A stretch of 35,881 nt of DNA from a virus (Duplodnaviria > Heunggongvirae > Uroviricota > Caudoviricetes): the IMG/VR virus record IMGVR_UViG_2541047915_000013; one strand, given 5' to 3'. Position numbers and translations under genes: made by a program. Positions 6,501-35,253 of this stretch are shown here, in pieces (the stretch's first letter is position 1; every line of letters begins with the position of its first letter). Under the pieces are notes generated by a model. The model made no database searches. It saw only the letters and a list, made by a program, of their open reading frames with translations, and had not been told where the DNA came from.

Positions 6501-6636
6501 GTTGCTTTAATGCGTCACGGGAGTTTCTGATTGCGCCAGCCAGCTCTTTCGAACTGGCCTGTGCAGCACGGAATGGGCGGGTGAGTTTGTCAACCGCATT
6601 AAGAATGACCTGCAGGCGCAGGTTGTTATCACTCAT
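3559..6636 (-). CDS. T: Tail tape measure protein T
   Basis: 1025 aa, Ala/Leu-rich with long helical and transmembrane-like segments; position after E/E'. Confidence 0.9.
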   Translation of the reverse strand: MSDNNLRLQVILNAVDKLTRPFRAAQASSKELAGAIRNSRDALKQLNQAGNSLEKFRKLQADNKKLGDRLNYARQKANLLSSELEAMEQPSQRHLVALGRQTLAVQRLEEQQKYLQKQTALVRAELYRAGISAKDDAGATARLARETSRYNQELSKQEARLKRLGEAQRRMNVARASYARSLEVRDRIAGAGATTTAAGLAMGTPVMAAVKSYTSMEDAMKGVAKQVNGLRDDNGNRTARFYEMQDAIKAASEQLPMENGAVDFAALVEGGARMNVANPDDSWEDQKRDLLAFASTAAKAATAFELPADELSESLGKIAQLYKIPTRNIEQLGDALNYLDDNAMSKGADIIDVMQRLGGVADRLDYRKAAALGSTFLTLGAAPEVAASAANAMVRELSIATMQSKSFFEGMNLLKLNPEVIEKQMTKDAMGTIQRVLEKVNALPQDKRLSAMTMLFGKEFGDDAAKLANNLPELQRQLKLTAGNDALGSMQKESDINKDSLSAQWLLVKTGTQNTFSSLGETLRQPLMDILYTVKSVTGALRRWVEANPELTGTLMKVAAIVAAVTVGLGTLAVALAAVLGPLAVIRLGFSVLGIKTLSSVTAAVTRTSSALSWLAGAPLALLRRGLASSGNAAGLLTAPLSSLRRTASLTGNVLKTVAVVPVALLRSGLSGLRAVAVMFMNPLAALRGGLAAAGSVLRVLASGPLAMLRVALYAISGLLGALLSPIGLVVTALAGVALVVWKYWQPITAFLAGVVEGFKAAAGPISAAFEPLKPVFQWIGDKVQALWGWFTDLLTPVKSTSAELQSAAAMGRRFGEALAEGLNMVMHPLDSLKSSVSWLLEKLGIVSKEAAKAKLPERVTRQQPATVNADGKVMMPSGGFPSWGYGFAGMYDSGGYIPRGQFGIVGENGPEIVNGPANVTSRRNTAALAAVVAGMMGVAAAPAELPPLHPLALPAKGGEAMVSRAATVPPVHRIEAPTQIIIQTQPGQSAQDIAREVARQLDERERRLKAKARSNYSDQGGYDA

Positions 6637-7065
6637 CGTTGGCCCCGCATCTCTGAATCGCTTTATACCGCCATTCCAGCACTTCGGTCAGCGGCATAAC
6701 GTCAGTAACGGATGGCGGCCAGTGAAAAATGGTGGCGATATCTGCCACCAGATCGTCAACCGTCAGGCTGTCGGTAAACCGGCAAGCACCGACTTCTTCA
6801 ACAAAAAAGTGACAACCTCAACCGACATGGCTGTGAGATCTGCCGGGTCCATCTCTGCGATTTCCTGTGCAGTCAGTGCCGGACTGGAGATGCGGGGGAT
6901 CACGGTCATCATCGCGTTCACATCCATATCCATAATGGCCTGCAGGCGTGTACCGCGCAGCGCACCGGACTGCGGTTTACGCAGCACAATTTCGGTAATT
7001 TCTGTTTTACCGCGCTTGATAGGGGTATCCAGTTGAATGGTCTTTTCAGTCTGCTTATCGCTCAT
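6629..7065 (-). CDS. E+E': Tail assembly chaperone E+E' (-1 programmed frameshift product)
   Basis: After the T TTT TTG heptamer the -1 frame stays open for about 58 codons (VEEVGACRFTDSLTVDDL...AIQRCGANDE) and stops at a TGA overlapping the T start codon. Confidence 0.7.
6763..7065 (-). CDS. E: Tail assembly chaperone E
   Basis: 100-aa ORF matching P2 gpE; contains the slippery site near its 3' end. Confidence 0.85.
   Translation of the reverse strand: MSDKQTEKTIQLDTPIKRGKTEITEIVLRKPQSGALRGTRLQAIMDMDVNAMMTVIPRISSPALTAQEIAEMDPADLTAMSVEVVTFLLKKSVLAGLPTA
6802..6808 (-). other. Slippery heptamer T TTT TTG for the E/E+E' -1 frameshift
   Basis: Minus-strand reading ACT TTT TTG in the E frame (plus strand CAAAAAA). 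Confidence 0.7.
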
Positions 7066-7119
7066 TTTGTTGTCCTGTAAATTGGGTTCTGGCGCGGAAT
7101 CCCGCGCCGTTCAGATACA

Positions 7120-7635
7120 TCAGAGGCCGAGGGCGTTGCGGTGCGCTTCCATCAGGTCCACACCGTCCACAATTTCCACCATGTTGATAAGGTCCACTTC
7201 ATAGAGCACCTCACCATTGATGGTCAGCTTCGCGTAGCTGTTGGTACTGGTCACTTTGGTGGTGTTGCTTTCGCCCGTCTTCCACTCGCCGGAATCTACT
7301 TCTTTGTGACGTCCACGCACGACAAGCTCCACGGCCTGCACTTCCCCGGTATCGTCACGCTGGATAGAGCCGGTAAAGCGCAGCTGGATGCCATCCACCG
7401 TGGATTTGCCCATCTGCTTAAACAGCAGCAGTTCAGTACCACCAATGGAAAATTCTGTATCCAGTGCACTGTCATCCAGTCCCAGATCCACATCCACCGC
7501 CCCCGGCATACCGCCGCCGCGATACTTCTCATATTTGCGGGTGAATTTCGGCAGCGTCAGCGACTCAACGATCCCCTGCCAGTTGTTCCCGTCGTTAAAC
7601 AAGTTCAGATGTTTTAATTTGCGTGGTAAAGCCAT
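7120..7635 (-). CDS. FII: Tail tube protein FII
   Basis: 171 aa, P2 gpFII-like. Confidence 0.9.
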   Translation of the reverse strand: MALPRKLKHLNLFNDGNNWQGIVESLTLPKFTRKYEKYRGGGMPGAVDVDLGLDDSALDTEFSIGGTELLLFKQMGKSTVDGIQLRFTGSIQRDDTGEVQAVELVVRGRHKEVDSGEWKTGESNTTKVTSTNSYAKLTINGEVLYEVDLINMVEIVDGVDLMEAHRNALGL

Positions 7636-7644
7636 GTTGTCCCC

Positions 7645-8817
7645 TTACGCGCTGACCTGGCTGGCGAAATTCACCAGGTACTGATCGGTGATGCGCTGGC
7701 GCAGCATCAGATTTTCAAGTGGCGGCACTGGCGTGTAGTCGTAGTCGATGGTGAGTTTTCCGGCTTTAAGCGTGTCTTTGTCGTTCACCGACTCGTCCAG
7801 CCAGCAATCACCACCAATGAGATAGCCCTGACTGACCAGGTTGCGCATTTTGGCGCGGATACCTTCGATAATGTCGCGGGCCAGCGACGGGTTAAGCGGT
7901 TTATCCACCGCCCACATGTGTGCTTCTGCCATCGTGTCCATCAGCACCTGCGCCGTGCGGGTGTAGTTTTCGAAGGCAAAGAGCGGGTCATCACTCAGGC
8001 AGCGGGAACCCCAGAAGCGGAAACCGTCTTTACGCACAAGCGTGGTGACATCGTTCTGGTTCAGCAGACCTGCATCGGTTGCCGGGTCCTGCAGATCCCA
8101 GAACACATCTGCAGAAATTCCGGTGACACCGTTCACGCCCACGTTGGACAGGCTTTTGTGCCACCCGGTCTGCTCATCAATTTTGGCACGCAGACCAAGC
8201 GCACGGGCGGTGGCATATGCCATTGCTTCGGCGTTCAGCACCGTGTCCCAGCCAGTAAAGTCAGGCCAGATCAGCATCCCTTCGCGCTGGCTGAAGTTTT
8301 CACGGTAAGTGATCGCCTCCTGTACCGTCTTGCAGCCATACGCTGACAGGTAGGCAAACCCACGCAGGCTTTGCGCCACACTCAGCAACTCAGTAGCAAC
8401 GGCTTTGTTATCGTGACCTGGCACGCCGAGAATGCGCGGTTTAACGCCGAGCTGTGACTGGGCAGATAACAGGGCTTTCATGCCTGTTTTTTTACCTTCA
8501 GCGGTCACTGCTCCGATGATATTGGTCGTGGTTTCGTCTTCCGTTTCACCCTGCGGCACACGCACAACAACGGTCACGGGTTTTGCCTGGTCAGCGATGG
8601 CGTCCAGCGAACGGGCCAGCGTTCCGGACTCACCCGCTTTACCGCTGGCAGTCAGCACATCAGTGATCAGCACGGGTTTATTAAGAGGAAACATTTTTGC
8701 ATCGGCATCATCGCCCGTGCAGACCATACCCACGATGGCGGTGCTCACCGTGGTAATGGATCGGGTGCCTTCGTTGACTTCAACAACGCGCACCCCGTGG
8801 TGGTAATCCTGAGCCAT
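7645..8817 (-). CDS. FI: Contractile tail sheath protein FI
   Basis: 390 aa, P2 gpFI-like. Confidence 0.9.
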
Positions 8818-8951: not shown

Positions 8952-9554
8952 TTAAAATTCTGGTAGTTCGGGCCAGTTAATATCAGGGGCTGTGCTGATA
9001 TCTATTGCTGCTACCACGTCGATATAGTCAAGAACGGAATCGAGCTTTACTGTTTCTTCCGCAGTTAATTTTCTTCCCGCCTGCAATTTTAGTTGAATCA
9101 GAACAATGGAAGACATGGCATCATCAATCAGTGACTGGCGTTGCAGTTCAGCCCCTTCCACTGCTGCGTTATGTTGCGCTTTGGTATCCGTCACCCATTT
9201 CTCACCATCCCACTTATCGTATGGTGTTAACGGAGCAATAGTGGTTGTCTTTTCAGGGTAATCTCCCGGCACTGTGATTTCTTTTGAGTCCCCCGTTTCG
9301 GTGTTATAGACGATTTCACCGCGATGGTCTGGCACATATTCCCATGATCTCAAATCCAGAGTTCGACAGGACACATAACCTGACTTATATGAACCAGGAG
9401 CATCTAAACACGAATGTGCGGGAATACCGACGCCAACAGCAAGATATTCAGTTGATTCAGAAATATATTCCCGTGTTTCACCATCATAGTTATAGACGGT
9501 AATATTCCCCGCCTTCGTGGCAATAAGTTCGCTATTTAATACGGCTTTATCCAT
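8952..9554 (-). CDS. G: Tail fibre assembly protein (gpG-like)
   Basis: 200 aa directly downstream of the tail fibre gene. Confidence 0.8.
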   Translation of the reverse strand: MDKAVLNSELIATKAGNITVYNYDGETREYISESTEYLAVGVGIPAHSCLDAPGSYKSGYVSCRTLDLRSWEYVPDHRGEIVYNTETGDSKEITVPGDYPEKTTTIAPLTPYDKWDGEKWVTDTKAQHNAAVEGAELQRQSLIDDAMSSIVLIQLKLQAGRKLTAEETVKLDSVLDYIDVVAAIDISTAPDINWPELPEF

Positions 9555-11179
9555 TACGCAGCTCTCACGATATAGTTAAATGCAATATTTCGTGGACGGG
9601 TTTCGCTCCCACCTGTGTTACCAATACTCCCTCGTGTATGTAGCGTTGGTGATGGAATCAGAGTCCCTCCGGCATCGGCAGCATCAAGCCCCCGGCCTTG
9701 CGTATATGCTTTTCTGAAGATTGCCGCCAGTTCCCATTCCTCTTTTGAATCATACCCATCGTTGGCTACAACCATATGGCGGTGTTTTTCCAGCATTCCA
9801 GCCTGAAGGCTCAATAAAGCACGCCCAGCATCAATACCACGCCCATCATCCCAGCCACGAATAAACTCACCACGTAAATCGGGCAATTTATTTGTCGGAT
9901 AAACCTTTGCCAGTTTGGGATATTCTTCAGCCGAAAAAGCCGCTCCGTTGCATTTCAGCCAGCCTGTCGGTGGAGTGGCAGAAGGCCACGGAACAGGGAC
10001 ACCAACAGGTAATGCAGAGCCATCCCCTAAACCAAGATAATCAAGAACGCCCTGTGCGCTGGGCTTGCTAAGAATGGCACGCCCAACACTTGTCAGTGCA
10101 GTTAAGGCAGCCCGATCTTCCCCTGTAAAATAAGGGAGTTTATCTTTTGATGTAGAAAGCCCTGCCAACGCTGTTAAAGTAGCATCCTTTGGCTGCTTCC
10201 CCGCAAGGGAGTTAGTTATTGTCGTGGCAAAGTTCGGATCATTCCCCAGCGCCGCTGCCAGTTCGTTCAGCGTATCCAGTGCCGCAGGTGCAGAACCCAC
10301 CATGGCTGCAATTGCCGATTTCACAAAAGCGGTAGTGGCAATCTGTGTATTGTTGACCGACTGCGCCGCCGTGGGAGCTGTTGGCGTTCCGGTAAGTGCC
10401 GGACTCGACAGCGGCGCTTTCAGTGCCAGCGCATTGTTAATGGTGGTGCTGAATTTCGGGTCATTGTTTATGGCTGCGGCTATTTCTTTCAGCGTGTCCA
10501 GCGTGGCTGGAGCACCATTAATAACGGCCTTCAGTGCCGCCTGAACAAACGCGGTGGTCGCAAGTTGCGTGGTATTATTCCCCGCCGCTGGCGTTGGCGC
10601 TTTGGGGGTTCCGGTAAATGTTGGGCTGGCTTTTGGCGCATACTGTGAATGTGGATCTGGTGCGGCAAGGTGTTTTGCCATCAGATCATCCACGTACACC
10701 TTCAGCTCCAGTGCCTTGTCATCCACATACTTGCGGGTTGCCAGCACTATAGCAGGATCGATTTTCAAGGTGATATTGTCCGTGCTGCTGGTAATCAGCA
10801 CCATGCGCACGGTCTGGGTGCGCCCGCTGCCTTCAGCCAGTTGCGGCTTATAGCTTTCCGGGCAGTTGCCCACGGCAATCAATGCCCCTGACTCATCAAA
10901 CAGGCCCACTTCACGTATCCACCAACCGCCCTCGTTTTCAGGGATCACCTGTTCAGCAATAATCTGGCTGCTGTTCTGCGGGTCGATATAGAGCATATTC
11001 AGCGCAGCCCGGCGTTTCTCATTTACCAGTGCAGTCTGCTTTGAGTCTGGCGTTGGCAATACTCCGCCGCCATCGCCGACCGCCATATGGGTAATTTTTA
11101 GCGGCACACCGAGCGCGGCGGCGCTGGCAAGTTTCGCCGCGCCAATATCCGTCAGCAGGGTATAAAATTTTGTGCTCAT
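9554..11179 (-). CDS. H: Tail fibre protein H
   Basis: 541 aa; N-terminus MSTKFYTLLTDIGAAKLA is gpH-like; internal tandem repeat; variable C-terminus. Confidence 0.85.
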   Translation of the reverse strand: MSTKFYTLLTDIGAAKLASAAALGVPLKITHMAVGDGGGVLPTPDSKQTALVNEKRRAALNMLYIDPQNSSQIIAEQVIPENEGGWWIREVGLFDESGALIAVGNCPESYKPQLAEGSGRTQTVRMVLITSSTDNITLKIDPAIVLATRKYVDDKALELKVYVDDLMAKHLAAPDPHSQYAPKASPTFTGTPKAPTPAAGNNTTQLATTAFVQAALKAVINGAPATLDTLKEIAAAINNDPKFSTTINNALALKAPLSSPALTGTPTAPTAAQSVNNTQIATTAFVKSAIAAMVGSAPAALDTLNELAAALGNDPNFATTITNSLAGKQPKDATLTALAGLSTSKDKLPYFTGEDRAALTALTSVGRAILSKPSAQGVLDYLGLGDGSALPVGVPVPWPSATPPTGWLKCNGAAFSAEEYPKLAKVYPTNKLPDLRGEFIRGWDDGRGIDAGRALLSLQAGMLEKHRHMVVANDGYDSKEEWELAAIFRKAYTQGRGLDAADAGGTLIPSPTLHTRGSIGNTGGSETRPRNIAFNYIVRAA

Positions 11180-19621: not shown

Positions 19622-21388
19622 ATGAACACCACACTGACACCCGCAGATCTCGATCCCCGTCGGCAGGCCATGCTGCTGTACTTTCAGGGATACCGCGTAG
19701 CCCGCATTGCTGAAATGCTGGGCGAGAAAGTTGCAACCGTTCACAGCTGGAAAAAACGCGACAAGTGGGGTGACTATGGGCCGCTGGATCAGATGCAGCT
19801 CACCACCGCCGCACGCTACTGCCAGCTCATTATGAAGGAGCACAAAGAAGGGAAAGATTTCAAAGAGATTGACCTGCTGGCGCGCCAGTCTGAGCGCCAC
19901 GCGCGGATCGGCAAGTTTAACAATGGCGGCAACGAAGCCGACTTAAACCCTAACGTCGCCAACCGCAATAAAGGCCCACGCCGTCAGCCGGAAAAGAATG
20001 TTTTCACCGATGAGCAGATTGAGAAGCTGGAAGAAATCTTCCATTCCTCCATGTTCAACTACCAGCGCCACTGGTGGGAAGCCGGAAAAACCAACCGCAT
20101 CCGCAACCTGCTGAAGTCACGCCAGATCGGCGCGACCTTCTATTTTGCCCGTGAAGCCCTGATTGACGCCCTGCTTACCGGACGTAACCAGATTTTCCTT
20201 TCTGCCAGTAAGGCTCAGGCCCACGTCTTTAAACAATACATCATCGACTTCGCCAAAGAAGTCGAGGTGGAGCTAAAAGGCGATCCGATGGTGCTTCCTA
20301 ACGGAGCTACGCTTTACTTCCTCGGCACCAATGCCCGCACGGCCCAGAGTTATCACGGCAACCTGTATCTGGATGAATATTTCTGGATACCGAAATTCCA
20401 GGAGCTGCGCAAAGTGGCTTCCGGGATGGCTATTCACAAAAAATGGCGACAAACCTATTTTTCCACGCCATCCAGCCTGACCCACAGTGCTTATCCGTTC
20501 TGGTCCGGTGCGCTGTTCAACCGTGGACGCAACAAAGCTGACAAGGTGGACATCGACCTGTCCCACAGCAATCTGGCCCCCGGCCTGCTGTGCGCAGACG
20601 GGCAATACCGCCAGATAGTCACCGTGGAAGATGCGGTGCGCGGCGGCTGTAACCTGTTCGACCTCGACCAGCTACGCTTGGAGTACAGCCCGGACGAATA
20701 CCAGAACCTGCTGATGTGCGAGTTCGTGGACGATCTCGCGTCCGTGTTCCCGCTCAGCGAACTGCAGGCGTGCATGGTGGACAGCTGGGAAGTCTGGACC
20801 GACTTTCATGCACTGGCCCTGCGCCCGTTTGGCTGGCGCGAAGTGTGGATCGGTTATGACCCGGCAAAAGGTACGCAGAACGGCGACAGTGCCGGATGCG
20901 TGGTGGTGGCTCCGCCAGCCGTGCCGGGTGGTAAGTTCCGCATTCTTGAGCGTCACCAGTGGCGCGGGATGGACTTCCGCGCCCAGGCTGACGCCATCAA
21001 AAAACTCACCGAACAGTACAACGTGACCTATATCGGTATCGACTCAACCGGCGTTGGTCACGGGGTTTATGAGAACGTGAAAGCGTTCTTTCCTGCCGTC
21101 CGGGAGTTTGTCTACAACCCCAATGTTAAAAACGCCCTGGTACTCAAGGCCTATGACATTATCAGCCACCGCCGTCTGGAGTTTGACGCCGGGCACACCG
21201 ACATTGCGCAGTCATTCATGGCAATCCGTCGCGCAACCACCGCCAGCGGCAACCGCCCGACCTATGAAGCCAGCCGCAGCGAAGAAGCCAGCCACGCCGA
21301 TCTGGCCTGGGCAACAATGCACGCACTGTTTAACGAACCGCTGCAGGGCGAATCCGCCAATACCAGCAATATTGTGGAGATTTTTTGA
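19622..21388 (+). CDS. P: Terminase ATPase (large) subunit P
   Basis: 588 aa, gpP-like. Confidence 0.9.
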   Translation: MNTTLTPADLDPRRQAMLLYFQGYRVARIAEMLGEKVATVHSWKKRDKWGDYGPLDQMQLTTAARYCQLIMKEHKEGKDFKEIDLLARQSERHARIGKFNNGGNEADLNPNVANRNKGPRRQPEKNVFTDEQIEKLEEIFHSSMFNYQRHWWEAGKTNRIRNLLKSRQIGATFYFAREALIDALLTGRNQIFLSASKAQAHVFKQYIIDFAKEVEVELKGDPMVLPNGATLYFLGTNARTAQSYHGNLYLDEYFWIPKFQELRKVASGMAIHKKWRQTYFSTPSSLTHSAYPFWSGALFNRGRNKADKVDIDLSHSNLAPGLLCADGQYRQIVTVEDAVRGGCNLFDLDQLRLEYSPDEYQNLLMCEFVDDLASVFPLSELQACMVDSWEVWTDFHALALRPFGWREVWIGYDPAKGTQNGDSAGCVVVAPPAVPGGKFRILERHQWRGMDFRAQADAIKKLTEQYNVTYIGIDSTGVGHGVYENVKAFFPAVREFVYNPNVKNALVLKAYDIISHRRLEFDAGHTDIAQSFMAIRRATTASGNRPTYEASRSEEASHADLAWATMHALFNEPLQGESANTSNIVEIF

Positions 21389-22419
21389 TGGGAAAGAGTA
21401 AGAAGAACCGCGCTGCGGCGACGAAACAGATCCAGCTTAAAAGCCAGACTACAGCCGAAGCATTCAGCTTCGGCGATCCCGTTCCTGTTCTGGATCGCCG
21501 AGAACTGCTGGACTATGTGGAATGCGTACAGATGGACCGTTGGTATGAGCCGCCCGTCAGCTTTGACGGACTGGCGCGCACCTTCCGCGCTGCCGTGCAT
21601 CACAGTTCCCCGATTGCAGTAAAGTGCAACATTCTGACCAGTACCTATATCCCTCATCCGCTGCTCAGCCAGCAGGCTTTTTCGCGTTTTGTACAGGACT
21701 ATCTGGTATTTGGTAACGCCTACCTGGAGAAACGCACGAACCGATTCGGTGAAGTTATCGCCCTTGAGCCTGCGCTGGCAAAATACACCCGACGCGGGTT
21801 AGACCTGGATACCTACTGGTTTGTGCAATACGGTATGACAACCCAGCCGTATCAGTTCACGAAAGGCAGCATTTTTCATCTGATGGAACCGGACATCAAC
21901 CAGGAGATCTACGGCCTGCCCGGTTATCTTTCTGCCATTCCGTCAGCTCTGCTCAACGAGTCCGCCACGCTGTTCCGCCGCAAGTATTACATTAACGGCA
22001 GTCATGCAGGCTTCATCATGTACATGACCGATGCTGCGCAGAACCAGGAGGATGTGAACAACCTCCGCAATGCGATGAAAAGCGCCAAAGGTCCTGGTAA
22101 CTTCCGTAACCTGTTTATGTACTCGCCTAACGGTAAAAAGGACGGGCTTCAGATTATCCCGTTGTCAGAAGTGGCGGCGAAGGATGAGTTCCTGAATATC
22201 AAGAACGTGAGCCGGGACGACATGATGGCGGCGCATCGTGTGCCGCCACAAATGATGGGGATAATGCCTAATAATGTCGGGGGGTTTGGGGATATCGAAA
22301 AGGCAAGCACAGTATTTGTACGAAATGAGCTACTGCCTCTACAAAAAATGTTTCTAGAAATAAATAATTGGTTAAACGATAGAATTATAAATTTTTCAAC
22401 CTACGAACTAAAAATTTAA
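21385..22419 (+). CDS. Q: Portal protein Q (3' end low-GC)
   Basis: 344 aa, gpQ-like; the last ~45 codons are AT-rich like the adjacent cargo. Confidence 0.9.
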   Translation: MMGKSKKNRAAATKQIQLKSQTTAEAFSFGDPVPVLDRRELLDYVECVQMDRWYEPPVSFDGLARTFRAAVHHSSPIAVKCNILTSTYIPHPLLSQQAFSRFVQDYLVFGNAYLEKRTNRFGEVIALEPALAKYTRRGLDLDTYWFVQYGMTTQPYQFTKGSIFHLMEPDINQEIYGLPGYLSAIPSALLNESATLFRRKYYINGSHAGFIMYMTDAAQNQEDVNNLRNAMKSAKGPGNFRNLFMYSPNGKKDGLQIIPLSEVAAKDEFLNIKNVSRDDMMAAHRVPPQMMGIMPNNVGGFGDIEKASTVFVRNELLPLQKMFLEINNWLNDRIINFSTYELKI

Positions 22420-22436
22420 TTAAGATAATTTAGTCG

Positions 22437-22454
22437 GCCTCATTTCTGAGGCCA
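22437..22454. terminator. Hairpin between the convergent Q and ATPase genes
   Basis: GGCCTCA-tttc-TGAGGCC, followed on the plus strand by ATATTTT. Confidence 0.4.
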
Positions 22455-22459
22455 TATTT

Positions 22460-23890
22460 TCATCTTGAAAGTATCACCCGTTCAAACAATGGCATTAATT
22501 GAGAATAAACATTATCATAATGTTCATCATTTAAAAGATGATATTTATTTTCAAGTTTGATGCTATTAAAACCATCCATGAAACTCTCATAACCAACAGT
22601 GCCAATAATAATCTGATTTGTAAGGGAAAACCCATCCAAGCATAGTTTTATAAGCTTATGCGTATGCTCTGGATCCAAATCTTGTTGCTTTGGAGAGTCT
22701 ATTACTATAGGCATATTCTCAACTGAAGAGTTGCTTTTCATAACACTAAGTAGCGCGTAGTGAAATGCAAATATACCTCGAGGACCTCGACTACCAGTCT
22801 TACCCTTAGTAATATTATTATAACTACTAAGGCCACCTACCTTTGTATTTTCGACACCAAGCTCTTTAAGAGCTTTAGCGAAATACTCTTTGAAACAGTC
22901 ATTTATTTTAACAGTTCTTTTCTTATCATTGTATACTTCTAATTCTTCTTGTAATTCTGTCAACTCGCCTTCTTTTCGACCAATCTCAACGAATAACTCA
23001 TCTAACTGTGAAACAAAAGTAGATTCAATTTCATGGTATGCAGCAGATTTAATAACATCATGAAGCGTTATTTCCGATTGAGTTTCTAAAATCAGCGCCT
23101 GCAACGCCTCTGAAGCAGCCCTTGACTCTTCTAGCTTTTGATTCAATTTAGGAATATTTTCCTCAATCTTGCTTTTCTCATCTGCAAGAACAGCAATGTT
23201 TTTGAGCATTTCATCTCTATGGTTTATATAATTATATTCATTTACTGAATAAGCAACATTATCATCTCGAAAATTCGAAATCTCAAATTCATTATCAATA
23301 ATCGCAGTTATCTCTTTGAGTTCACTCTCAAGGAAATTCTTCCTAGAATATAACCTCAAAAGATTCAATCTATATTCTGTCTGAACTAAATTCAAATTAG
23401 AATATTCATTTAATATACGTTCTAACTTTGATTTATAAAAATCCAAATCAACATCAAATAAAACCACACCAAAAGATTCATCAATCTTACTTTTGCTTCT
23501 TTTTAGAACCTTAACAAAACCATCTAACTCTGAAATTTTAACTTTAACTTCTTTGATTTTCCCTTGAACTGTGTAATATTCCTTTGGCTTAATTCCAGAG
23601 TGATAGTAAAGAATGTTTTTTTGCCATTCTGAGTACATACTCATGTTTTCGAAAGAATTTATCACCGCTTTCCATCCTTCATCCTGATCAATAAAGAATG
23701 GGGCAAACAAACAAGCAGGGTTTGCCTGAGTCGTAGCACCCGTATATTTATTATGTAATTCCAGTTTAAAACCAAATATATTTGAAACACGAGATGCTAA
23801 TGACGAAATCGTGTTATACACGACTAGATCATCATTCTTCAAATCAAAGACACCAATAATCTTTTTATAACGCAAAAAAAATAAAATCAC
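22460..23890 (-). CDS. SMC/ABC-type ATPase, C-terminal part (LmuB/DUF3732-like), separated from its P-loop by a frameshift
   Basis: Long coiled-coil region, then PIVIDSP (Walker-B-like) and DPEH (H-loop-like); no Walker A in this ORF; about 30% GC. Confidence 0.6.
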   Translation of the reverse strand: MILFFLRYKKIIGVFDLKNDDLVVYNTISSLASRVSNIFGFKLELHNKYTGATTQANPACLFAPFFIDQDEGWKAVINSFENMSMYSEWQKNILYYHSGIKPKEYYTVQGKIKEVKVKISELDGFVKVLKRSKSKIDESFGVVLFDVDLDFYKSKLERILNEYSNLNLVQTEYRLNLLRLYSRKNFLESELKEITAIIDNEFEISNFRDDNVAYSVNEYNYINHRDEMLKNIAVLADEKSKIEENIPKLNQKLEESRAASEALQALILETQSEITLHDVIKSAAYHEIESTFVSQLDELFVEIGRKEGELTELQEELEVYNDKKRTVKINDCFKEYFAKALKELGVENTKVGGLSSYNNITKGKTGSRGPRGIFAFHYALLSVMKSNSSVENMPIVIDSPKQQDLDPEHTHKLIKLCLDGFSLTNQIIIGTVGYESFMDGFNSIKLENKYHLLNDEHYDNVYSQLMPLFERVILSR

Positions 23891-24134
23891 TTTCCCCGTT
23901 ATTAATTTCCACCAGTGTAACTATATCATCTGATTTCCAAGCATCATCAAGCCTTAAATCTCCACCTAATGTGTAATAAAGACTTTTAATCAGGCTTGAT
24001 TTACCAACATCATTTGTACCATATATGAAGTTAACCCCTTCTGAAAACTCATAAGAAAAAGCTTTTCTGTCTCTTAATGAGAGTATTTTTATATTTTTAA
24101 ATTTAACGTTATTCTTCATAAGAAACATCCTCAA
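23865..24134 (-). CDS. SMC/ABC-type ATPase, N-terminal P-loop fragment
   Basis: Walker A GTNDVGKSSL; frame ends inside a T8 tract where the downstream ORF continues in the +1 frame. Confidence 0.6.
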   Translation of the reverse strand: MRMFLMKNNVKFKNIKILSLRDRKAFSYEFSEGVNFIYGTNDVGKSSLIKSLYYTLGGDLRLDDAWKSDDIVTLVEINNGESDFIFFAL

Positions 24135-25188
24135 AAGTCAACTTTATAATTGCATATATAGCAATCATAAATTTCTCTTCTTGATTTAATAAAGAGAAAT
24201 CCCCGTCCCCCGCTGCAATTGTTTTTTCGAGTGTAAAGAAGAGGTCTCGAACAGGTATCTCACGATAATGCTCTATACTCTTTAGAGCCGATTGAAATTC
24301 CAGAAAATAAAGATAGTATATTGAATTGACATTGAGCACTTTTATTGATATGCGTGTAAAAACTGATTGTAATTTAATCCCCTCATAAGGATCTGAGAAA
24401 GTACCAAGCAACATACAAACCTGTTCCCATTTTGGCGTTATTTTTATGCTTGCAATGAGTCCAGATAATAAATCAGTTACAAATTCTGAAGATATACCTT
24501 TCTTTAGTACTAAATCTTCAAAAGTTTTGATATCACTAGAAGCAACACTAACCTTCTCATTACACTTATTGATTAATAATTTAGTGAATGCTGTTGAATT
24601 AATACCATGATCATCCCCAAAGTAAGAATTCAAAAAAACTGCAACTTTCCCGTATAAATGTGAGTTAGGATCTAACAAACTAAGATCAGATGTTTTAAAT
24701 TTTATTTTATCAAGAGGAACTTCTTTTTTAGTATTTAGCTGCTCTTGAACCTTACTAATTATAATTTCCTTATGCTCATTATTAAGATCACTACCTTTTT
24801 CGTTATTATCATTTAAGAAATCGAATCCAGCATTCGATAACAGAACCATATAAATTTCGTGACCAACGAATTGATAGAAATGGTCATATAGTTTTGCAAC
24901 AAATGATTTAGGTTTAGCTTTTGTTGCGTTCACTATTGCTGCGAGTGTCCATTTACCATCTTTTTTTGTTTTAACTTGGATAAACTCAGCACTAGTCGGA
25001 GAAACAGATGAATTCAATACAAGAATATCGTCATGATATTCAAATAGAAATAAATATTTCTCCTTTTCTTTTTGTTTCTCAAGTAAATAATTTATCCCCC
25101 AAGAGGCTTGATATGAAAAGCCTCTCAACGCGTTTTCACCGCCCCGTTCTGCTTGATTTACTGTAATTAACGCATCTGATAACGCCAC
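24109..25188 (-). CDS. PD-(D/E)xK nuclease-like protein of the Cap4/DUF4297 type (LmuA-like)
   Basis: N-terminal GGENALRGFSYQ ... YHDDILVL ... EFIQVK motifs; GTG start with AGGGA ribosome-binding site; about 30% GC. Confidence 0.55.
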   Translation of the reverse strand: MALSDALITVNQAERGGENALRGFSYQASWGINYLLEKQKEKEKYLFLFEYHDDILVLNSSVSPTSAEFIQVKTKKDGKWTLAAIVNATKAKPKSFVAKLYDHFYQFVGHEIYMVLLSNAGFDFLNDNNEKGSDLNNEHKEIIISKVQEQLNTKKEVPLDKIKFKTSDLSLLDPNSHLYGKVAVFLNSYFGDDHGINSTAFTKLLINKCNEKVSVASSDIKTFEDLVLKKGISSEFVTDLLSGLIASIKITPKWEQVCMLLGTFSDPYEGIKLQSVFTRISIKVLNVNSIYYLYFLEFQSALKSIEHYREIPVRDLFFTLEKTIAAGDGDFSLLNQEEKFMIAIYAIIKLTFEDVSYEE

Positions 25189-25273
25189 TCTATATATCCC
25201 TATTGTACTGCTTTTTTTGATACAAATTACCTTAGCTTCACCATCAAGTCCACAGATTCATGGCTAAGCGCGC

Positions 25274-25293
25274 GCTCGTATCCCCGCCACGCC
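25274..25293 (-). other. cos-like site (putative cohesive-end sequence)
   Basis: Minus-strand GGCGTGGCGGGGATACGAGC; the first 13 nt match the P2/186 cohesive-end sequence as I recall it. Confidence 0.4.
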
Positions 25294-25337
25294 TGCCCGC
25301 TTTATGTAGTGGTTTTCATGCACCTGCATGATCTACG

Positions 25338-25362
25338 CAAAAGCCCGCCAGTTCTGGCGGGC
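25338..25362 (-). terminator. Rho-independent terminator after the dinI-like operon
   Basis: GCCCGCCAG-aac-CTGGCGGGC hairpin followed by TTTTG on the minus strand. Confidence 0.55.
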
Positions 25363-25497
25363 CTTAGCAAAAACGATCCTCAAACGATCATGCGATCTCA
25401 TGCGGCATAGACATGCACTACAGAGCTAACGCCTCGCAAGGGCTCGTTGTTCAACCTTGCTGACGCCAGAAGCAAGTTCAGACGCCAGCAACGTTTC

Positions 25498-25731
25498 TTA
25501 ATGCAGCCAGCTGTCGTCTTCCCACACCTTCTGCATAATTTTCATCACTTGTTTTCTTTCTTCGTCCTGTTGCAGTCCGGTCAGTTCCACACCGTTAGAG
25601 CTACCTTTGCGGATACGAATTACCGTTTTGGGATACAGGGAGCGCAGATTGCGGTAAAGCTCGGATTCAAGGGCGTCCATGGTAGACTGGCTAATCTTCT
25701 GCTCTTTATCGATCATTATTTCAATGCGCAT
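25498..25731 (-). CDS. DinI-family protein (DNA-damage-inducible protein I-like)
   Basis: MRIEIMIDKEQ...LESELYRNLRSLYP...VWEDDSWLH resembles DinI; start set at the internal ATG at 25731; the ORF is open to 25803. Confidence 0.7.
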   Translation of the reverse strand: MRIEIMIDKEQKISQSTMDALESELYRNLRSLYPKTVIRIRKGSSNGVELTGLQQDEERKQVMKIMQKVWEDDSWLH

Positions 25732-25741
25732 AAAAGTCACC

Positions 25742-25930
25742 TCAGCTGATGACATCCATTGAGCGGTTGTATTCGTGGGTTCTGATTTTTGCCATGAGTT
25801 CATCAGTCAATTCAGAAACCCACTGCAGAGCCAGCCCCTTATCTTCATCACTACACTCACTAGCCGCTACAAGCTTAAGAAAAAAATCAATGCGCTGGAG
25901 CTTCAAAGACTCCAAAAAATAGTCCTGCAT
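25742..25930 (-). CDS. Hypothetical protein, first gene of the LexA-box operon
   Basis: ATG at 25930 preceded by AGGAGG; LexA box about 45 bp upstream. Confidence 0.5.
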   Translation of the reverse strand: MQDYFLESLKLQRIDFFLKLVAASECSDEDKGLALQWVSELTDELMAKIRTHEYNRSMDVIS

Positions 25931-25971
25931 CTTTCCTCCTATGACACCACACGCAATACTGTATGTATAAT

Positions 25972-25991
25972 CACTGTTTATATTTACAGTA
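25972..25991. promoter_or_regulatory. LexA (SOS) box
   Basis: CACTGTTTATATTTACAGTA fits CTGT-N8-ACAG. Confidence 0.65.
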
Positions 25992-26083
25992 TATAATAAT
26001 CTTACTGATGTAAAACGTTTTTTTACGTTCATCAGCCTGATATGCCTGGTATTATTAAGAGCACGAATTGTTAACCCGCGTAA

Positions 26084-28498
26084 TTAATACAGGTTCCGCC
26101 ACTGATCATCTTCCTGCAAACGCTGGTTCCGATAGAAGATACGCAGGCCTGCTCCTGACGGAATACTGCCTCCGCGAAGGAGTAAATCGACCTCTTTCTC
26201 GCTGCCATCAAATCCTCTGGACTTCAGCTCATACACGAGCTGCAGTCGCTGATGGTCTGTAATTCGCTGTTTGTAGTCTTTACGCCGTTTCGGTTTCACC
26301 TGGCGTAACCTTGCAGCCAGTTCCCGGCGCTCTTTTTTGCTCATACTGTGCAGGTAATCGTGCAACTCCTTGTCATTCATACAGGTAATATCCGTTCTGG
26401 AGTCCCCATCAGCTGATTTGTCTTTCCCTTGTTGGTTCAAATTTTCAGCAAGGGGACAGTTATTGCCACGAGTCCAAGGGGCGCAAGCGCCCTGGTCGGC
26501 TGCCGCCTCCTGAACGTCAACGGCCTTACGAACTATTTTCCACTTCACTGCATGAGTGCAGATCTTGCCCTCTGCAATGGGTGACCAGATGCCATAAATA
26601 CGAATGCCGTGATCGCCATAGGCGGTCGGCTCTTCGTTGATTTCATAAGCGGTTCTGATCAGGTGATATTTGCGGGGAACCAGTACGCCGCCCTGCTTCA
26701 TGATGTAGGTGGCAAAACAACCAGCATCAGCAGCAGCCAGGATTGCATCAAGGCGCGGGTTATCCAGTACCGGCGCACCTGCTTTTTTGTCCCCCTGTTG
26801 CCTTGCCGCCTGACCAGCCAGCAATCGCAGTTCACGGTAAGCCTGACGCCCCGGAATGCCAAAGAAGCGGAATTGCTGAACACGATGCAGAGACGCCCAG
26901 GCATTAACGTATTCAGCGTTATCACGCAGGGATTTACCCGTTTCCTTGCTGATCTCGCCAGCCAGACCACGCCCGTCAATGTTCTTACTAATGTATTTCG
27001 CGATGTAGCTTGTCGGCGTTCCTTTGCGCGGGTTAATCAACTCAGACTTAAAGCGCGGCCCTGTGTTATTGCCCAGCTCCTCGCGGTCTTCACGGATGGC
27101 AAACTTACGCAGTAATGCAGTGATGGCGCGGCGGTCTTTTTTGCGCATAAAACACAACAGGTGCCAGTGAACTGTACCGTCATGATGCGGCTCAGCCACC
27201 CGCACGCCATACCACCGCAATCCGGCTTTGTGCATCGCCTTACGAAATGCAGCAAACATGCCGACCAGATAATCACTGCTTTGTCTTACCGTCGCATTTG
27301 TCCAGGTTGGGTTGGGCCTGCCGTTATTTAGCGTGGAATGGAAACGTGACGGACAGGTGATGGTGTAGAAAACGGCGCAGTCACCGCGCATTTCCGCGAT
27401 AAGCTCCAGACCTTTAACACAGGCCATCATCTCATTGCGGCGATGCGCAGGGTTGCTGCTGCTGGCGTTTACCACATCTTCCATATCCAGCGTGTCGCCG
27501 TCTTCGTTCACCAGTTCATGAGAACGAAAAAACTCCAGCGACTTACGGCGCTGCTCACGTTTATGCATCACGGCTTCATAGCTGACATAGGGGGATGCTT
27601 TTTTGCTGACCAGGCAGACAGCACGCAACTGCTCTTCCCGCCATTCGCAACGCATCTTCCATAATTTCCGATACCACCAGTCGGCACACAACATACGCGC
27701 CAGCGAACCCGGAATGAGTTCATAGGGCACGGGTTTACGGCGGTTTCTTTTCCGACGGAGTTGCTCAAACGCAGGCGGAATAACATCCAGACGCAGGGTT
27801 TCCGCTGCCACCTTTTCCCATGTTTTGCGGATTTCTTCTGGCTTAACGTCATCGGTGGCATACAAATCGCCACAAGCTGCATCAAGACACATGCTCATAT
27901 GCGCAGCAACAAGGGTGGACAGGCGTTTCACCTGATCCTGACTCATTTCAGGCAGGATCAGCAGGCCGTCCAGCCCTTCATGGCTTGCCATAAAGCGAAA
28001 AGAAGTGGATAGCTGACTCTCGCGTACATGCTCCAGTCGTTCCAGACATGGCTTAATCGTCTCACGCAAATAGCGGGAATAAGCCTTTGGCCTGCCCAGG
28101 CTGCTGAAGTATTCAATACGTTGCATCAGCGGCTTGCTGATATGGGAAGGCTGGGCGTTGACGTCCGCCAGAATGACCATGTCTGGATTAAAACGCTGCT
28201 GCTCATGCGCCAGCTTTGCCCGGCTAATGAGCTTATCCTGCTCCATTTCGCGCTGGACAGGATCACGGGATTCATTAAAGAAATAACGCTCCCAGACCTG
28301 ATCACTCAGTGCCTCACGGCGCAGTTGTTCCTGCTCGTTATCGGCAGCGTACAGAGTGATCAGGTTTGAAAGCGCAGAAACCGGCGCAACTTCCGCCGGG
28401 TCCAGATAAGGGTTAATAGCCTTTTTCGGGCTGTTCCATGAGAATGCTGCGGCGGCCTCGTTAAAGCCGCTGCAGTTGTTCATATCAGCATGGCTCAT
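26084..28498 (-). CDS. A: Replication initiation endonuclease A (rolling-circle initiator)
   Basis: 804 aa; HxH motif (VHWHLL) and YIAKYISK tyrosine motif; gpA-like. Confidence 0.9.
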
Positions 28499-31927: not shown

Positions 31928-32944
31928 ATGACCATCAGAAAACAGCCGAACGGAAAATGGTTGTGTGAGTGCTATCCCAATGGACGCAATGGTAAGCGCG
32001 TGCGTAAGCAATTTGCTACGAAAGGCGAAGCCATTGCTTTTGAAAGCTTCACAATGGAAGAAGTGAATAAAAAACCGTGGTTGGGTGAAAAGGATGATCG
32101 GCGACGCCTATCAGAATTAATTGAGCTTTGGTATTCCCTGTATGGTCAGACACTCGCAGACCCCAAGCGCCTCATGGCGAAACTTAGAATTATCTGTAAT
32201 GGTCTAGGCGACCCCATCGCCTCAGAACTGACAGCCGGTGACTTTACGAAATACCGCGAAGCACGGTTAAAAGGTGACGTTCGTAACGAAGACGGCACAC
32301 TAATGTCGCCAGTAAAACCACGCACGGTGAATCTTGAGCAACGTAACCTATCATCGGTTTTCGGCACATTGAAAAAACTAGGCCACTGGTCAGCACCAAA
32401 TCCTCTCGCCGGGCTGCCAACATTTAAAATCGCTGAGGGGGAACTGGCGTTCCTGACCTCGGAAGAAATTAAACGTCTGCTAGATGCCTGCGCTGATTCT
32501 CAAAACCCCAGTCTGCTTTTGATTGCAAAAATATGCCTGGCCACCGGCGCACGCTGGAGTGAAGCTGAAAACCTGCAGGGCCATCAGTTATCTAAATACC
32601 GCATCACTTATACCAAGACGAAGGGTAAGAAAAACCGCACCGTGCCGATATCTCAAGATCTGTATGACGAACTCCCCAAGAACAGAGGGAAGCTATTCAC
32701 CCCGTGCAGAAAAGCCTTTGAACGAGCAGTAAAGCGAGCTGGCATCGAGCTGCCAGAGGGCCAATGCACTCACGTGCTACGTCATACATTCGCCAGCCAT
32801 TTTATGATGAATGGCGGAAACATACTGGTGCTGCGCGATATTCTGGGCCATGCCGATATAAAAATGACGATGATTTACGCCCACTTTTCGCCCGATCACC
32901 TTGAAGATGCGGTAACTAAAAACCCTTTATGCAACTTAAGATAG
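31928..32944 (+). CDS. int: Tyrosine integrase (P2/186 family)
   Basis: 338 aa; ...ATGARWSEA..., ...HVLRHTFASHFMMNGG... and ...MIYAHF motifs typical of P2-type integrases. Confidence 0.9.
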   Translation: MTIRKQPNGKWLCECYPNGRNGKRVRKQFATKGEAIAFESFTMEEVNKKPWLGEKDDRRRLSELIELWYSLYGQTLADPKRLMAKLRIICNGLGDPIASELTAGDFTKYREARLKGDVRNEDGTLMSPVKPRTVNLEQRNLSSVFGTLKKLGHWSAPNPLAGLPTFKIAEGELAFLTSEEIKRLLDACADSQNPSLLLIAKICLATGARWSEAENLQGHQLSKYRITYTKTKGKKNRTVPISQDLYDELPKNRGKLFTPCRKAFERAVKRAGIELPEGQCTHVLRHTFASHFMMNGGNILVLRDILGHADIKMTMIYAHFSPDHLEDAVTKNPLCNLR

Positions 32945-33260
32945 AGTAACTTATGAAAACAAACTCAAACTATTTACAAATATAATATTCAGCAGGTTAT
33001 CCATTCTCATTTAACTCTTCAGACTGAGTTTAGGTTTTATTTATAGAATAAGATAATTTTTACATCACAAAAAAACCTATAAGCCCTCATCTTTGTTGTA
33101 TAAAAACATCAAAGATGCCACATTCAAAAATAGTAGAAAAGCATAGCATTGCAACATTAAAAAGAAACCAATAAAAAACAGTCATTAGAAAATGAAAAAA
33201 ACAAAAACATTTTTTATCGAAGCTTCAGTCTGACTACTAGTTTGACTCTGCAATTAACTT

Positions 33261-33290
33261 TCAAGATGATCAATATTTATTGATCATCTT
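33261..33290. repeat. Perfect 13-bp inverted repeat (hairpin) carrying two GATC sites
   Basis: CAAGATGATCAAT-attt-ATTGATCATCTTG, 35 bp beyond the deaminase stop. Confidence 0.7.
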
Positions 33291-33324
33291 GAAGCTTACC
33301 TCAGGAAGGATGAGTATAATATTT

Positions 33325-35058
33325 CTACTCAAGGAGATATTCTAACTCATCTTTTATCGGGATAATTTGCTCATAAAGTCGGTGATATGACTTCCCAATT
33401 GCGCCTCTAAATTGTATTAACTTTGGTGGCTTACTACCTATATTAATAATATGGTCTTGAGCTATACCTGGGTAGGGATCAATAAATACAATTTCAGATA
33501 TACCTAACTGATAAGCTTTTTTCGCACACAACTCACAGGGACTGGCAGTTGTATACAACTTCCCCCCCAGAACGCCAATACCACCATATTTTGCAAGTTG
33601 CAAAAATGCGTTTTCCTCAGCATGTAATGCACGTGTATGAACTTGATTACCTTTTTTCTCTTTATCAAGATCATTATGTATATCTTTAAAACAATAAGAT
33701 AAGTTCCTGCCTCTATAAATATCACCAGTTTTATCTATCGCCCTAAAATTTAAGAGTTTCTCATTAGCTTTAATTCTGAAAGAACTATTATTTCTCTCAT
33801 AATGACTGTACGTTTTTTCATCAAAATCGTTCATTAGGCCATCTAGAGATCTCATAGAGCAAGGAATCTGACCGTTGGCAACATCATTCCAACCAACTGA
33901 TTTTATTGAATTATCACCATCAGTTACTACAGCTCCCACCTGTCTAGATATACAGCCAGAGTTTAATTTTACCGTATACGCAACTTGCATAACCCTTTCC
34001 ATTGCAGTAGGTGTTATCAGACCAGGATGCTTCATCAGTGCGATGTACCACGCTAATTGTGCTTTTAAAATATTGTCATTATCAAATTCATTTTTTGGGT
34101 TAAAAATGTGTATATCTGATAGTTCAATACATTTAGTTACATTTGGATTGGTGAGATGTTTGTAAGAGTTATCACCTTTACCTGACTCTACAGAATCTAT
34201 TTCCTCTATCTGCTTTTCTGAAAACTTATGTAGTTTCCGCAAATAGTTTGTTCGATGTTCATCCGGGGCATTTATTGACATTAAATGAAATGCAGAATAT
34301 CTATCCTTAAAAAATTTTGCCTCATATGGATTTCTAATAGCATCTATGACAATTAATGCGTTATCTCTTTTGCTTTTTCTTATTAATTTAATAACCCTAT
34401 TAATAGTTTCCGGCAAATGAAAAACAGATTTAGGCATAAACTCTTTATCTTCAAAATCGACTTCAATACGCCCACGACGTCTAATTGACTTACCTGCTAA
34501 CTGATAGGCTGAAACATATAAATTTGAGTTTATCTCATTTAGTTCAGCTTTGAATTCTTTAGTAAATTTTCTAACTAACTTCAAAATTGATATAAATTTA
34601 TTAATCGTTTTTTCATCAAGCTTCAATTCACTATTATGATCAAGCAAATTCTCAATTACATTTTTAAATCTTGTCAAAATGAGATTATCTGAGAATACAC
34701 CAAAAGTTAATACAATATCTAAATGCTCTTTACTGATAGATTTATTAGATGATAGAATGAATTCAGAAGCTTCCTCAGCTGTTAACATCAGAAGATACGC
34801 TGAGATTAGGTCACTCACCTTAATTGAGTAAAAATTTTCCCAGTGATTTTCTGCGAATTTTTTAACTATATTATAACGATGGACATCCAATCCCTTGTAA
34901 AACCCCTGTAATTTACTTACATCAGGGAAGACTGTTTTTTCGTTTTCAAGAATATTAGCTGTTGTTGTGCAACCAGAACCAGTTCGACCTGTCAAACCGA
35001 CTAAAATAAACTGCCCATTTTCAAGGAAAAGCTCACTAACGAATTTTTTTTCTTTCAT
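33325..35058 (-). CDS. P-loop kinase-like / cytidine deaminase fusion protein (AvcD/dCTP-deaminase-like accessory gene)
   Basis: N-terminal P-loop GRTGSGCTT; C-terminal deaminase zinc motifs HAEENA and SPCELC; ATG at 35058; about 30% GC. Confidence 0.7.
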   Translation of the reverse strand: MKEKKFVSELFLENGQFILVGLTGRTGSGCTTTANILENEKTVFPDVSKLQGFYKGLDVHRYNIVKKFAENHWENFYSIKVSDLISAYLLMLTAEEASEFILSSNKSISKEHLDIVLTFGVFSDNLILTRFKNVIENLLDHNSELKLDEKTINKFISILKLVRKFTKEFKAELNEINSNLYVSAYQLAGKSIRRRGRIEVDFEDKEFMPKSVFHLPETINRVIKLIRKSKRDNALIVIDAIRNPYEAKFFKDRYSAFHLMSINAPDEHRTNYLRKLHKFSEKQIEEIDSVESGKGDNSYKHLTNPNVTKCIELSDIHIFNPKNEFDNDNILKAQLAWYIALMKHPGLITPTAMERVMQVAYTVKLNSGCISRQVGAVVTDGDNSIKSVGWNDVANGQIPCSMRSLDGLMNDFDEKTYSHYERNNSSFRIKANEKLLNFRAIDKTGDIYRGRNLSYCFKDIHNDLDKEKKGNQVHTRALHAEENAFLQLAKYGGIGVLGGKLYTTASPCELCAKKAYQLGISEIVFIDPYPGIAQDHIINIGSKPPKLIQFRGAIGKSYHRLYEQIIPIKDELEYLLE

Positions 35059-35253
35059 CACGTCCCACTTATGAATGCAAGAACAATTAACATATTAATT
35101 GTAATTTATTAACTAATTTTATTCTAGATACTTGATGTAATGGCGGCACTTTGGCGGCAGAGCATTAAAAACGCGTAAGACGAGCAAATACAAAATAACA
35201 CTAACACATTGTTTTCAAACATAATCTACTGTTTTTACTATAATAAAAATGGT

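Follow-up and report, generated by a model that had tools for sequence, protein, structure and literature searches.

Does the exchangeable defence cassette of a P2-like prophage begin after the last core gene that flanks it, or inside that gene? The question is raised by the locus between the portal gene Q and the packaging site cos in the IMG/VR virus record IMGVR_UViG_2541047915_000013 (Caudoviricetes), a P2-like (Peduoviridae) prophage of which the whole stretch of 35,881 nucleotides (nt) was analysed; this stretch is called the window, and all coordinates refer to it. The late genes lie on the minus strand, P and Q lie on the plus strand, and the order P, Q, cargo, cos, DinI-like gene, A is given by the Pfam domains Phage_portal and Phage_GPA and by collinear annotated Peduoviridae phages. 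The cargo, a predicted Lamassu defence system, is thus located between the portal gene Q and the replication gene A. A sequence-only reading of the window had noted that the content of guanine and cytosine (GC) drops abruptly about 130 base pairs, or about 45 codons, before the stop codon of Q, so that the end of the gene shares the composition of the cargo, rich in adenine and thymine (AT). The answer given here, with a probability of roughly three in four, is that the GC break near 22294 is the left border of a swappable defence module, which is moved by a crossover at the edge of Q and a junction at cos.

The break in GC within Q is real and extreme. GC content is 0.531 in Q from 21388 to 22293 and 0.278 from 22294 to 22419; it is 0.35 in the spacer that follows (22420-22459) and 0.321 in the cargo (22460-25188). 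Across the late region (2000-22293) no 126-nt segment has a GC content of 0.30 or less (mean 0.556, standard deviation 0.046, minimum 0.381), and relative to these segments the end of Q, from here on the tail, has a z score of -6.1. The maximum-likelihood change point of GC content lies at about 22312, 107 nt before the end of the Q open reading frame (ORF; stop included), with a gain of 34.9 log-likelihood units. At third codon positions the GC content (GC3) is 0.64 in the Q body, 0.24 in tail codons 303-343, 0.24 in LmuA and 0.27 in LmuB. Both the drop and the cargo-like composition of the gene end therefore hold as first described, the distance being refined to 126 nt, that is, 41 codons and the stop.

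Relatives were sampled as 158 usable Q loci from GenBank phages, one genome per GTDB species and IMG/VR, with 131 distinct tail DNA sequences among them. Of 120 loci with AT-rich cargo, 114 have their GC change point within Q, with a median distance to the stop of 107 nt. The GC of the tail in 68 enterobacterial loci goes with that of the 1 kb downstream (r = 0.80), whereas it shows no such correlation with the Q body (r = 0.07). With one representative per tail, the correlation between tail and cargo is 0.74 overall, and it is 0.62 among the 107 distinct tails that adjoin cargo below 0.45 GC. This graded correlation points to a history shared by tail and cargo; the tail would be AT-rich like the cargo because it has the cargo's history and not the body's. 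That history may be either the circulation of modules of tail and cargo in P2-like phages of lower-GC hosts, or a drift towards AT, in step with the cargo, of a segment that is excluded from homologous homogenisation, and the correlation does not choose between the two.

A different account of the same composition would be that all P2-like portals have a C-terminal stretch under weak constraint, which evolves fast and is intrinsically rich in AT, and that its likeness to the cargo arose by chance. Apart from the N-terminus, no part of Q is less conserved than the tail (amino acid identity of about 0.57 at codons 319-333 compared with 0.75-0.97 over most of the body), and its GC lies below that of the body in most loci sampled. 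Such an account is very improbable, as two controls exclude weak constraint as the cause. The N-terminus of Q (amino acids 4-18), which is equally variable (amino acid identity 0.21), keeps a body-like GC3 of 0.68. In P2, where the Q stop lies 167 nt from cos with no cargo between, tail GC is 0.52, and it reaches 0.57-0.60 in further loci without AT-rich cargo beside Q; the AT-rich stretch is thus not universal. The dependence of tail GC on cargo GC rather than on body GC argues in the same direction.

Nucleotide identity places the border more closely. Compared with about 60 relatives, the window has its change point at 22294, codon 303, just after the residues GGFGD, which are encoded by a G-rich run directly before the border (GTCGGGGGGTTTGGGGAT, 22282-22299). 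The Q body, homogenised among the P2-like phages of E. coli and Klebsiella, is 0.92-0.98 identical to relatives up to 22293. Among 2371 pairs with similar bodies and unrelated cargo, 76% have their change point at codons 303-308. The protein remains conserved to about codon 319, beyond the border in the DNA; nevertheless, third-position identity in codons with identical amino acids falls from 0.67 (codons 270-302) to 0.46 (codons 303-319). Because this drop occurs where the protein is conserved, it marks a border of ancestry and not of constraint, which also counts against an intrinsically AT-rich tail. Database searches gave a similar position. In a megablast search of Q against phage records, relatives with other cargo lose similarity at 22301-22388, and a related Q was matched in 1207 of 5426 complete E. 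coli genomes, with the match ending at 22301-22409 among the matches listed. Only 11 of these genomes carry the cargo of the window, and megablast gave no match of the module in plasmids. The mirror image is seen in 46 pairs that carry the same module on different backgrounds, where identity is 0.91-0.95 up to nt 900 of Q and 0.97-1.00 from nt 901. In 8 of 10 modules the body has mismatches up to a point 4-46 nt from the border, and the 123-nt tail has 0-5 of them.

The tail is co-inherited with the cargo and not with the gene body. The sequence-only reading had proposed that the portal C-termini of related prophages should covary with the cargo rather than with the rest of Q, and this was found: 64 of 67 tail pairs at least 97% identical share the adjacent cargo, whereas, at the same threshold for the Q body, only 25 of 63 pairs do so and the other 38 have unrelated cargo. 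The three exceptions among the tail pairs are trivial and involve one cargo-less locus and one locus truncated 77 nt past Q. Tails are not identical regardless of cargo, their median identity being 57% where bodies at least 93% identical are joined to unrelated cargo; pairs with the same cargo have a median identity of 100% in the tail and 94.7% in the body. Phages that share cargo can have tails that are 100% identical and bodies that differ by 6-7%, a further point against intrinsic AT-richness. The tail of the window itself is found with 100% identity in four loci (L001, L089, L171 and L172) that have the same Lamassu cargo and Q bodies 96.5-96.8% identical. AIPR, retron, DUF4145, Hypoth_Ymh and other cargos adjoin Q genes that are 90-95% identical. 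Where cargos are distantly homologous (65-80% identity), tail identity is intermediate (median 0.67 compared with 0.545), and the linkage of tail and cargo is therefore old.

Conserved positions show that the replacement tail is a genuine homologous Q tail and not foreign sequence: residues F310, V311, N313, E314, L315, P317, N326, W328, F336 and Y339 are invariant in an alignment of 40 sequences, and the conserved pattern, including VFVRNEL-PLQ, is likewise found in the 158 loci. The junction is therefore a product of exchange between P2-like phages and not of fusion to foreign DNA. An AlphaFold2 model built on this shallow alignment is poor, with a mean predicted local distance difference test (pLDDT) score of 38.8; its sole confident element is a helix at residues 303-329, and the tail is accordingly described here as encoding a predicted C-terminal helix. 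A search of the Protein Data Bank with the Q sequence gave no match.

The 47-residue tail alone was also searched against 5.8 billion proteins, which returned only two 64-residue fragments; one of them led to the Logan contig L176 (SRR1779119), which was not used as evidence. Positions 5762-8283 of this contig hold the 3' 40% of a P2-like Q gene, 81% identical to the window at 21982-22403, followed by a hairpin of its own, a gene for a 310-residue protein, a gene with a DndB domain and a cos block, of which the 36 nt reached are all identical to the window. The segment adjoins lambdoid genes for NinG, NinE, antiterminator Q and holin. It is most likely a P2-like remnant or a hybrid, and it could be a chimeric assembly.

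Between tail and cargo lies a hairpin (GGCCTCA-TTTC-TGAGGCC, then ATATTTT) that folds at -18 kcal/mol on either strand, with a z score of about -5, and that a terminator scan rates as terminator-like. The sequence-only reading had its presence and its place between the convergent genes right and its coordinates off by one base (22436-22453, not 22437-22454). The position corresponds to that of the annotated tQ terminator of P2. Other modules have their own, differing hairpins here, and this non-coding hairpin and the spacer covary with the cargo in the same way as the tail does.

Co-inheritance of this kind might be selected, if the tail was functionally matched to the cargo or was under diversifying selection, for the avoidance of self-targeting or for the evasion of portal-sensing immunity. 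Portal proteins do trigger some defence systems, such as Avs4, the number of distinct tails in the sample is high, and the border coincides with the start of the discrete helix of the weak structural model. A functional coupling is nonetheless quite unlikely. Tails covary with all types of cargo (AIPR, retron, DUF4145 and Lamassu), a behaviour that fits linkage better than a specific match between proteins, and the hairpin and spacer, which encode no protein, do likewise. Within the helix, the hydrophobic and structural positions are conserved and the variable ones shift to AT-rich codons, which has the look of compositional drift.

At its other end the variable DNA stops at cos. Homology with relatives that carry other cargo (about 108 loci) begins again at 25257-25270, most often at 25267/25268, so that 8 nt remain up to the cohesive-end sequence and the variable DNA ends at 25266, directly adjoining cos. 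The cohesive-end sequence (25275-25293; reverse complement GGCGTGGCGGGGATACGAG) has 14 of 19 matches to P2 cosL, and this cos-like 19-mer is identical to the 'putative cos site' annotated in phage Cartapus. Many relatives align to the window only over the 152-nt cos block (25267-25418). Of nine modules compared on different backgrounds, seven are almost free of mismatches (0-4) over the 400 nt that lead from cos towards the cargo; on the opposite side the same seven have 17-46 in the initial 150 nt, the first of them 5-17 nt past the cohesive-end sequence. From this near-identity on one side and divergence on the other, the shared unit reaches from about codon 300 of Q to cos and corresponds to the left-terminal segment of the mature linear genome. 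Comparison of the two sides indicates that cos divides the published gpA-gpQ hotspot into two regions that assort independently. The interval between Q and cos is empty in only about 5 of the about 108 loci, where about 150-240 nt separate the Q stop from the cos block, and most cargos in the sample lie on the Q side of cos. The tin and old genes of P2 itself are located on the A side (PMC9122126).

Modules bounded in this way could also result from ordinary double homologous crossovers, in Q and in the cos block or A, with no role for cos cutting. The tract that the window shares with Klebsiella phage Kp4845-2 (L001) ends at 25347-25472, inside or just past the cos block and not at the nick, and identity also extends over the initial 150 nt past cos in two modules (L127/L147 and window/L171), both of which would be expected from such events. 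This explanation is unlikely: in seven of nine modules, a divergence of 11-30% sets in 5-17 nt past the cohesive end while the cargo side is near-identical, a RecA-type crossover would need to be placed repeatedly inside about 30 nt of shared sequence, and the two sides of cos appear to assort independently.

The sharp and recurrent borders on both sides, and the location of the variable stretch at the 3' end of a gene, as in the target regions of retroelements, might suggest instead a site-specific or self-mobile element at the end of Q, such as an integron-like cassette, a transposon or the target of a diversity-generating retroelement. This is barely conceivable. No direct or inverted repeats and no att-like sites that pair the two borders were found, the cargo consists only of LmuA and LmuB and includes no recombinase, transposase or reverse transcriptase, and one of the borders is the phage's own cos site. 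Moreover, the tails are complete homologous Q tails that differ at all base types, along with kilobases of unrelated cargo.

The mechanism that we infer involves two junctions. The module 22294-25266, from codon 303 of Q to 8 nt before the cohesive end, comprises the predicted C-terminal helix of the portal protein, the terminator hairpin of the P-Q operon and the Lamassu cassette, and such modules would move as units between P2-like phages as the left-terminal segment of the packaged linear genome. The first junction would be a homologous crossover where the conserved Q body ends; no crossover would occur beyond this point because the tails are only about 55-60% identical. The second junction would be cos: where genomes are cut, annealed or packaged from one cos to the next, one crossover between them would suffice to replace the terminal segment. 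Each recipient would carry a chimeric portal protein made of the resident body and the incoming tail. It is rather doubtful that the codon-300 edge of Q is a true recombination hotspot that, with cos cutting, forms a mechanism of terminal cassette reassortment; in that case Holliday junctions, for example, may stall or be resolved at the border between homology and heterology, or breaks may form readily in the G-rich GGFGD codons. Recombination stimulated by Chi and starting at the cos end was considered and rejected, as the Chi sequence (GCTGGTGG) is absent from both strands of the 35.9 kb, an absence that is not significant with about 1.3 copies expected by chance.

Several points weigh against a module border that is placed and moved in this way. 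Compared with Kp4845-2, the window diverges by about 0.5% from 21775-21897 to 25347-25472 and by about 3-5% elsewhere, the same module on E. coli and Klebsiella backbones being 99.4% identical against this background. The latest detectable exchange tract thus starts at 21775-21897, further upstream in Q, and the GC break would not be the crossover of that event. From this wider tract the GC break is read as a standing module border. The proposal that a recombination junction within Q replaced its C-terminal tail is supported, with the refinement that the GC break recurs across the family and need not be the crossover of the last exchange in this lineage. Another candidate, a conserved anchor formed by long stretches of identity directly before the border, was rejected, as the opposite was seen: identical runs of at least 25 nt are scarcest at nt 751-900 of Q, where 0.19-0.25 of the pairs have them compared with 0.5-0.87 in the middle of the gene. 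The pile-up of junctions is therefore not explained by a better homology anchor, and stalling of junctions at heterology, repeated erosion of the tract or a true hotspot are the possibilities for it. The right junction can be resolved to about 30 nt at best, because the cos sequence is itself conserved. No full-length low-GC Q that could be a donor of the tail was found among 128 GTDB relatives (minimum body GC 0.50), in a peptide-pattern search biased to close relatives. Finally, the pairs are phylogenetically non-independent, so that pair counts overstate the number of events and counts per module (10-18 modules) are safer.

The variable locus was reportedly first described by Odegrip et al. 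in 2006. A defence hotspot between gpA and gpQ, located beside cos and subject to rapid swapping, has been published, according to the accessible text of three papers (Rousset et al., 2022, PMC9122126; Vassallo et al., 2022, PMC9519451; Moura de Sousa et al., 2026, PMC13586616). The locus studied here resembles it in its position between Q and A beside cos, in the unrelated defence cassettes found in similar phages, and in a swapping so fast that near-identical core genes carry different cargo. It departs from the description in the accessible text, in which Q is a whole core gene at the flank and the hotspot is made up of the genes that separate it from A. The mechanism of the very fast cassette turnover is called unknown in the text available of two of these papers (PMC9122126; PMC13586616), and one of them speculates that the exchange is driven by cohesive ends together with one homologous event (PMC9122126). 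The mechanism inferred here agrees with this speculation and lends it support at the nucleotide level. The literature text that was searched contains no report of a variable unit that starts about 126 nt inside Q, although an earlier description may exist, nor of a unit that ends within about 8 nt of the cohesive-end sequence or cos nick, nor of a hotspot split by cos into two independently assorting regions. The hotspot itself is known; the border property in Q seems to be undescribed and mechanistically informative.

Mosaic borders inside phage genes are familiar, for instance from lambdoid phages and from tail-fibre genes. They share with the border in Q a sharp switch of ancestry within an ORF at the apparent edge of a structural element, functional chimeric proteins, and homologous flanks that guide the exchange. 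In contrast to them, the border in Q is reused by more than 100 modules, is paired with a packaging site and has a GC3 step of 0.4. In lambda genetics, the linear map ends at cos and terminal markers are exchanged by a single crossover. The likeness to the case proposed here is that a cos-adjacent segment can be replaced by one crossover while cos cutting and packaging supply the other end. P2 is reported to recombine poorly in crosses and to be packaged from monomeric circles, and the lambda logic may not apply to it.

The coordinates of the locus and its neighbours are collected in Table 1.

Table 1. Features of the window around the border in Q, with the evidence for each.
Feature	Coordinates	Strand	Evidence and remarks
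P, terminase large subunit	19622-21388	+	ORF list; GpP annotation in collinear relatives; first gene of the P-Q operon, conserved backbone
Q, portal, 343 amino acids	21388-22419	+	Pfam Phage_portal
Q body, codons 1-302, ends GGFGD	21388-22293	+	backbone-like GC 0.53, GC3 0.64
Q tail, codons 303-343 and stop, 126 nt	22294-22419	+	GC 0.28, GC3 0.24; change points, cargo covariation
GC-rich terminator-like hairpin	22436-22453	.	between convergent Q and lmuB stops
lmuB, SMC-like ATPase, two ORFs (23865-24134 and 22460-23890)	22460-24134	-	PADLOC LmuB
lmuA, Cap4-type nuclease / DUF4297 effector	24109-25188	-	PADLOC LmuA, Pfam Cap4_nuclease
AT-rich cassette leader, GC 0.35, final bases of the variable module	25189-25266	.	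homology with other-cargo relatives resumes only at 25257-25270
conserved cos block, 152 nt, GC 0.559	25267-25418	.	cohesive-end sequence 25275-25293
second variable region beyond cos: DinI-like gene (25498-25803), 96-residue ORF that matches no family (25742-26032)	25419-26083	-	Pfam DinI
replication gene A, far conserved flank of the published gpA-gpQ hotspot	26084-28498	-	Pfam Phage_GPA E = 6e-128

From assignments to profile hidden Markov models, the cargo between Q and cos is predicted to be a Lamassu defence system of type I, with the pair LmuA and LmuB in the usual order and orientation (PADLOC). LmuA matches its PADLOC profile with E = 4e-143 (residues 1-356 against profile positions 1-360 of 361) and Pfam Cap4_nuclease with E = 1.4e-33; the gene is co-oriented with lmuB and overlaps its start by 26 nt. 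LmuB is represented by two ORFs, of 476 residues (E = 1e-208, profile positions 79-549) and 89 residues (E = 1e-39, positions 2-81), which together span positions 2-549 of 550 and are separated by a +1 frameshift in a homopolymer run at 23860-23890 (A8 on the plus strand). In six relatives the run has seven bases and LmuB is intact, with 557 residues. Either the frameshift truly inactivates the gene or it stems from an error of assembly; according to a recent study, P2 hotspots rarely contain defence pseudogenes. The matches span nearly the whole length of both profiles, for lmuB with its two ORFs taken together, and the frameshift in lmuB sets the window apart from the usual type I system. 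The region 21890-23400 is 100% identical to E. coli VG888-46E9 (NZ_CP128581).

Two other parts of the prophage have an unusual composition. An AT-rich island at about 33000-35100 (GC about 0.30-0.36), just past the integrase gene (31928-32944), holds an ORF on the minus strand (33325-35061) for a protein of 578 residues with a cytidine/deoxycytidine monophosphate deaminase domain. The gene, at the integrase-att end of the prophage, is a candidate for a defence gene of the deaminase type. The lowest-GC 126-nt segments of the late region outside Q (0.38), at about 9435-9590, coincide with the place where the tail-fibre gene (9554-11179) meets the tail-fibre assembly gene (8952-9554), and a further mosaic border may lie there.

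With the exchanged unit placed to the nucleotide, the published speculation on cohesive ends becomes a directly testable model, in which every swap yields a chimeric portal protein. Gene-level pipelines that treat Q as an intact flank misplace the border and may split clusters of portal proteins by cargo, and the tail could act as a short sequence barcode of the adjoining cassette. If the codon-300 edge is indeed a true hotspot, which is rather doubtful, the GC3 step of 0.4 within one gene would be a natural experiment, in which DNA outside homologous homogenisation drifts towards AT and the recombining part of the same gene stays GC-rich. Terminal cassette reassortment would then account for the very fast turnover of defence systems in P2-like phages, and perhaps for that in further cos phages and in satellites.

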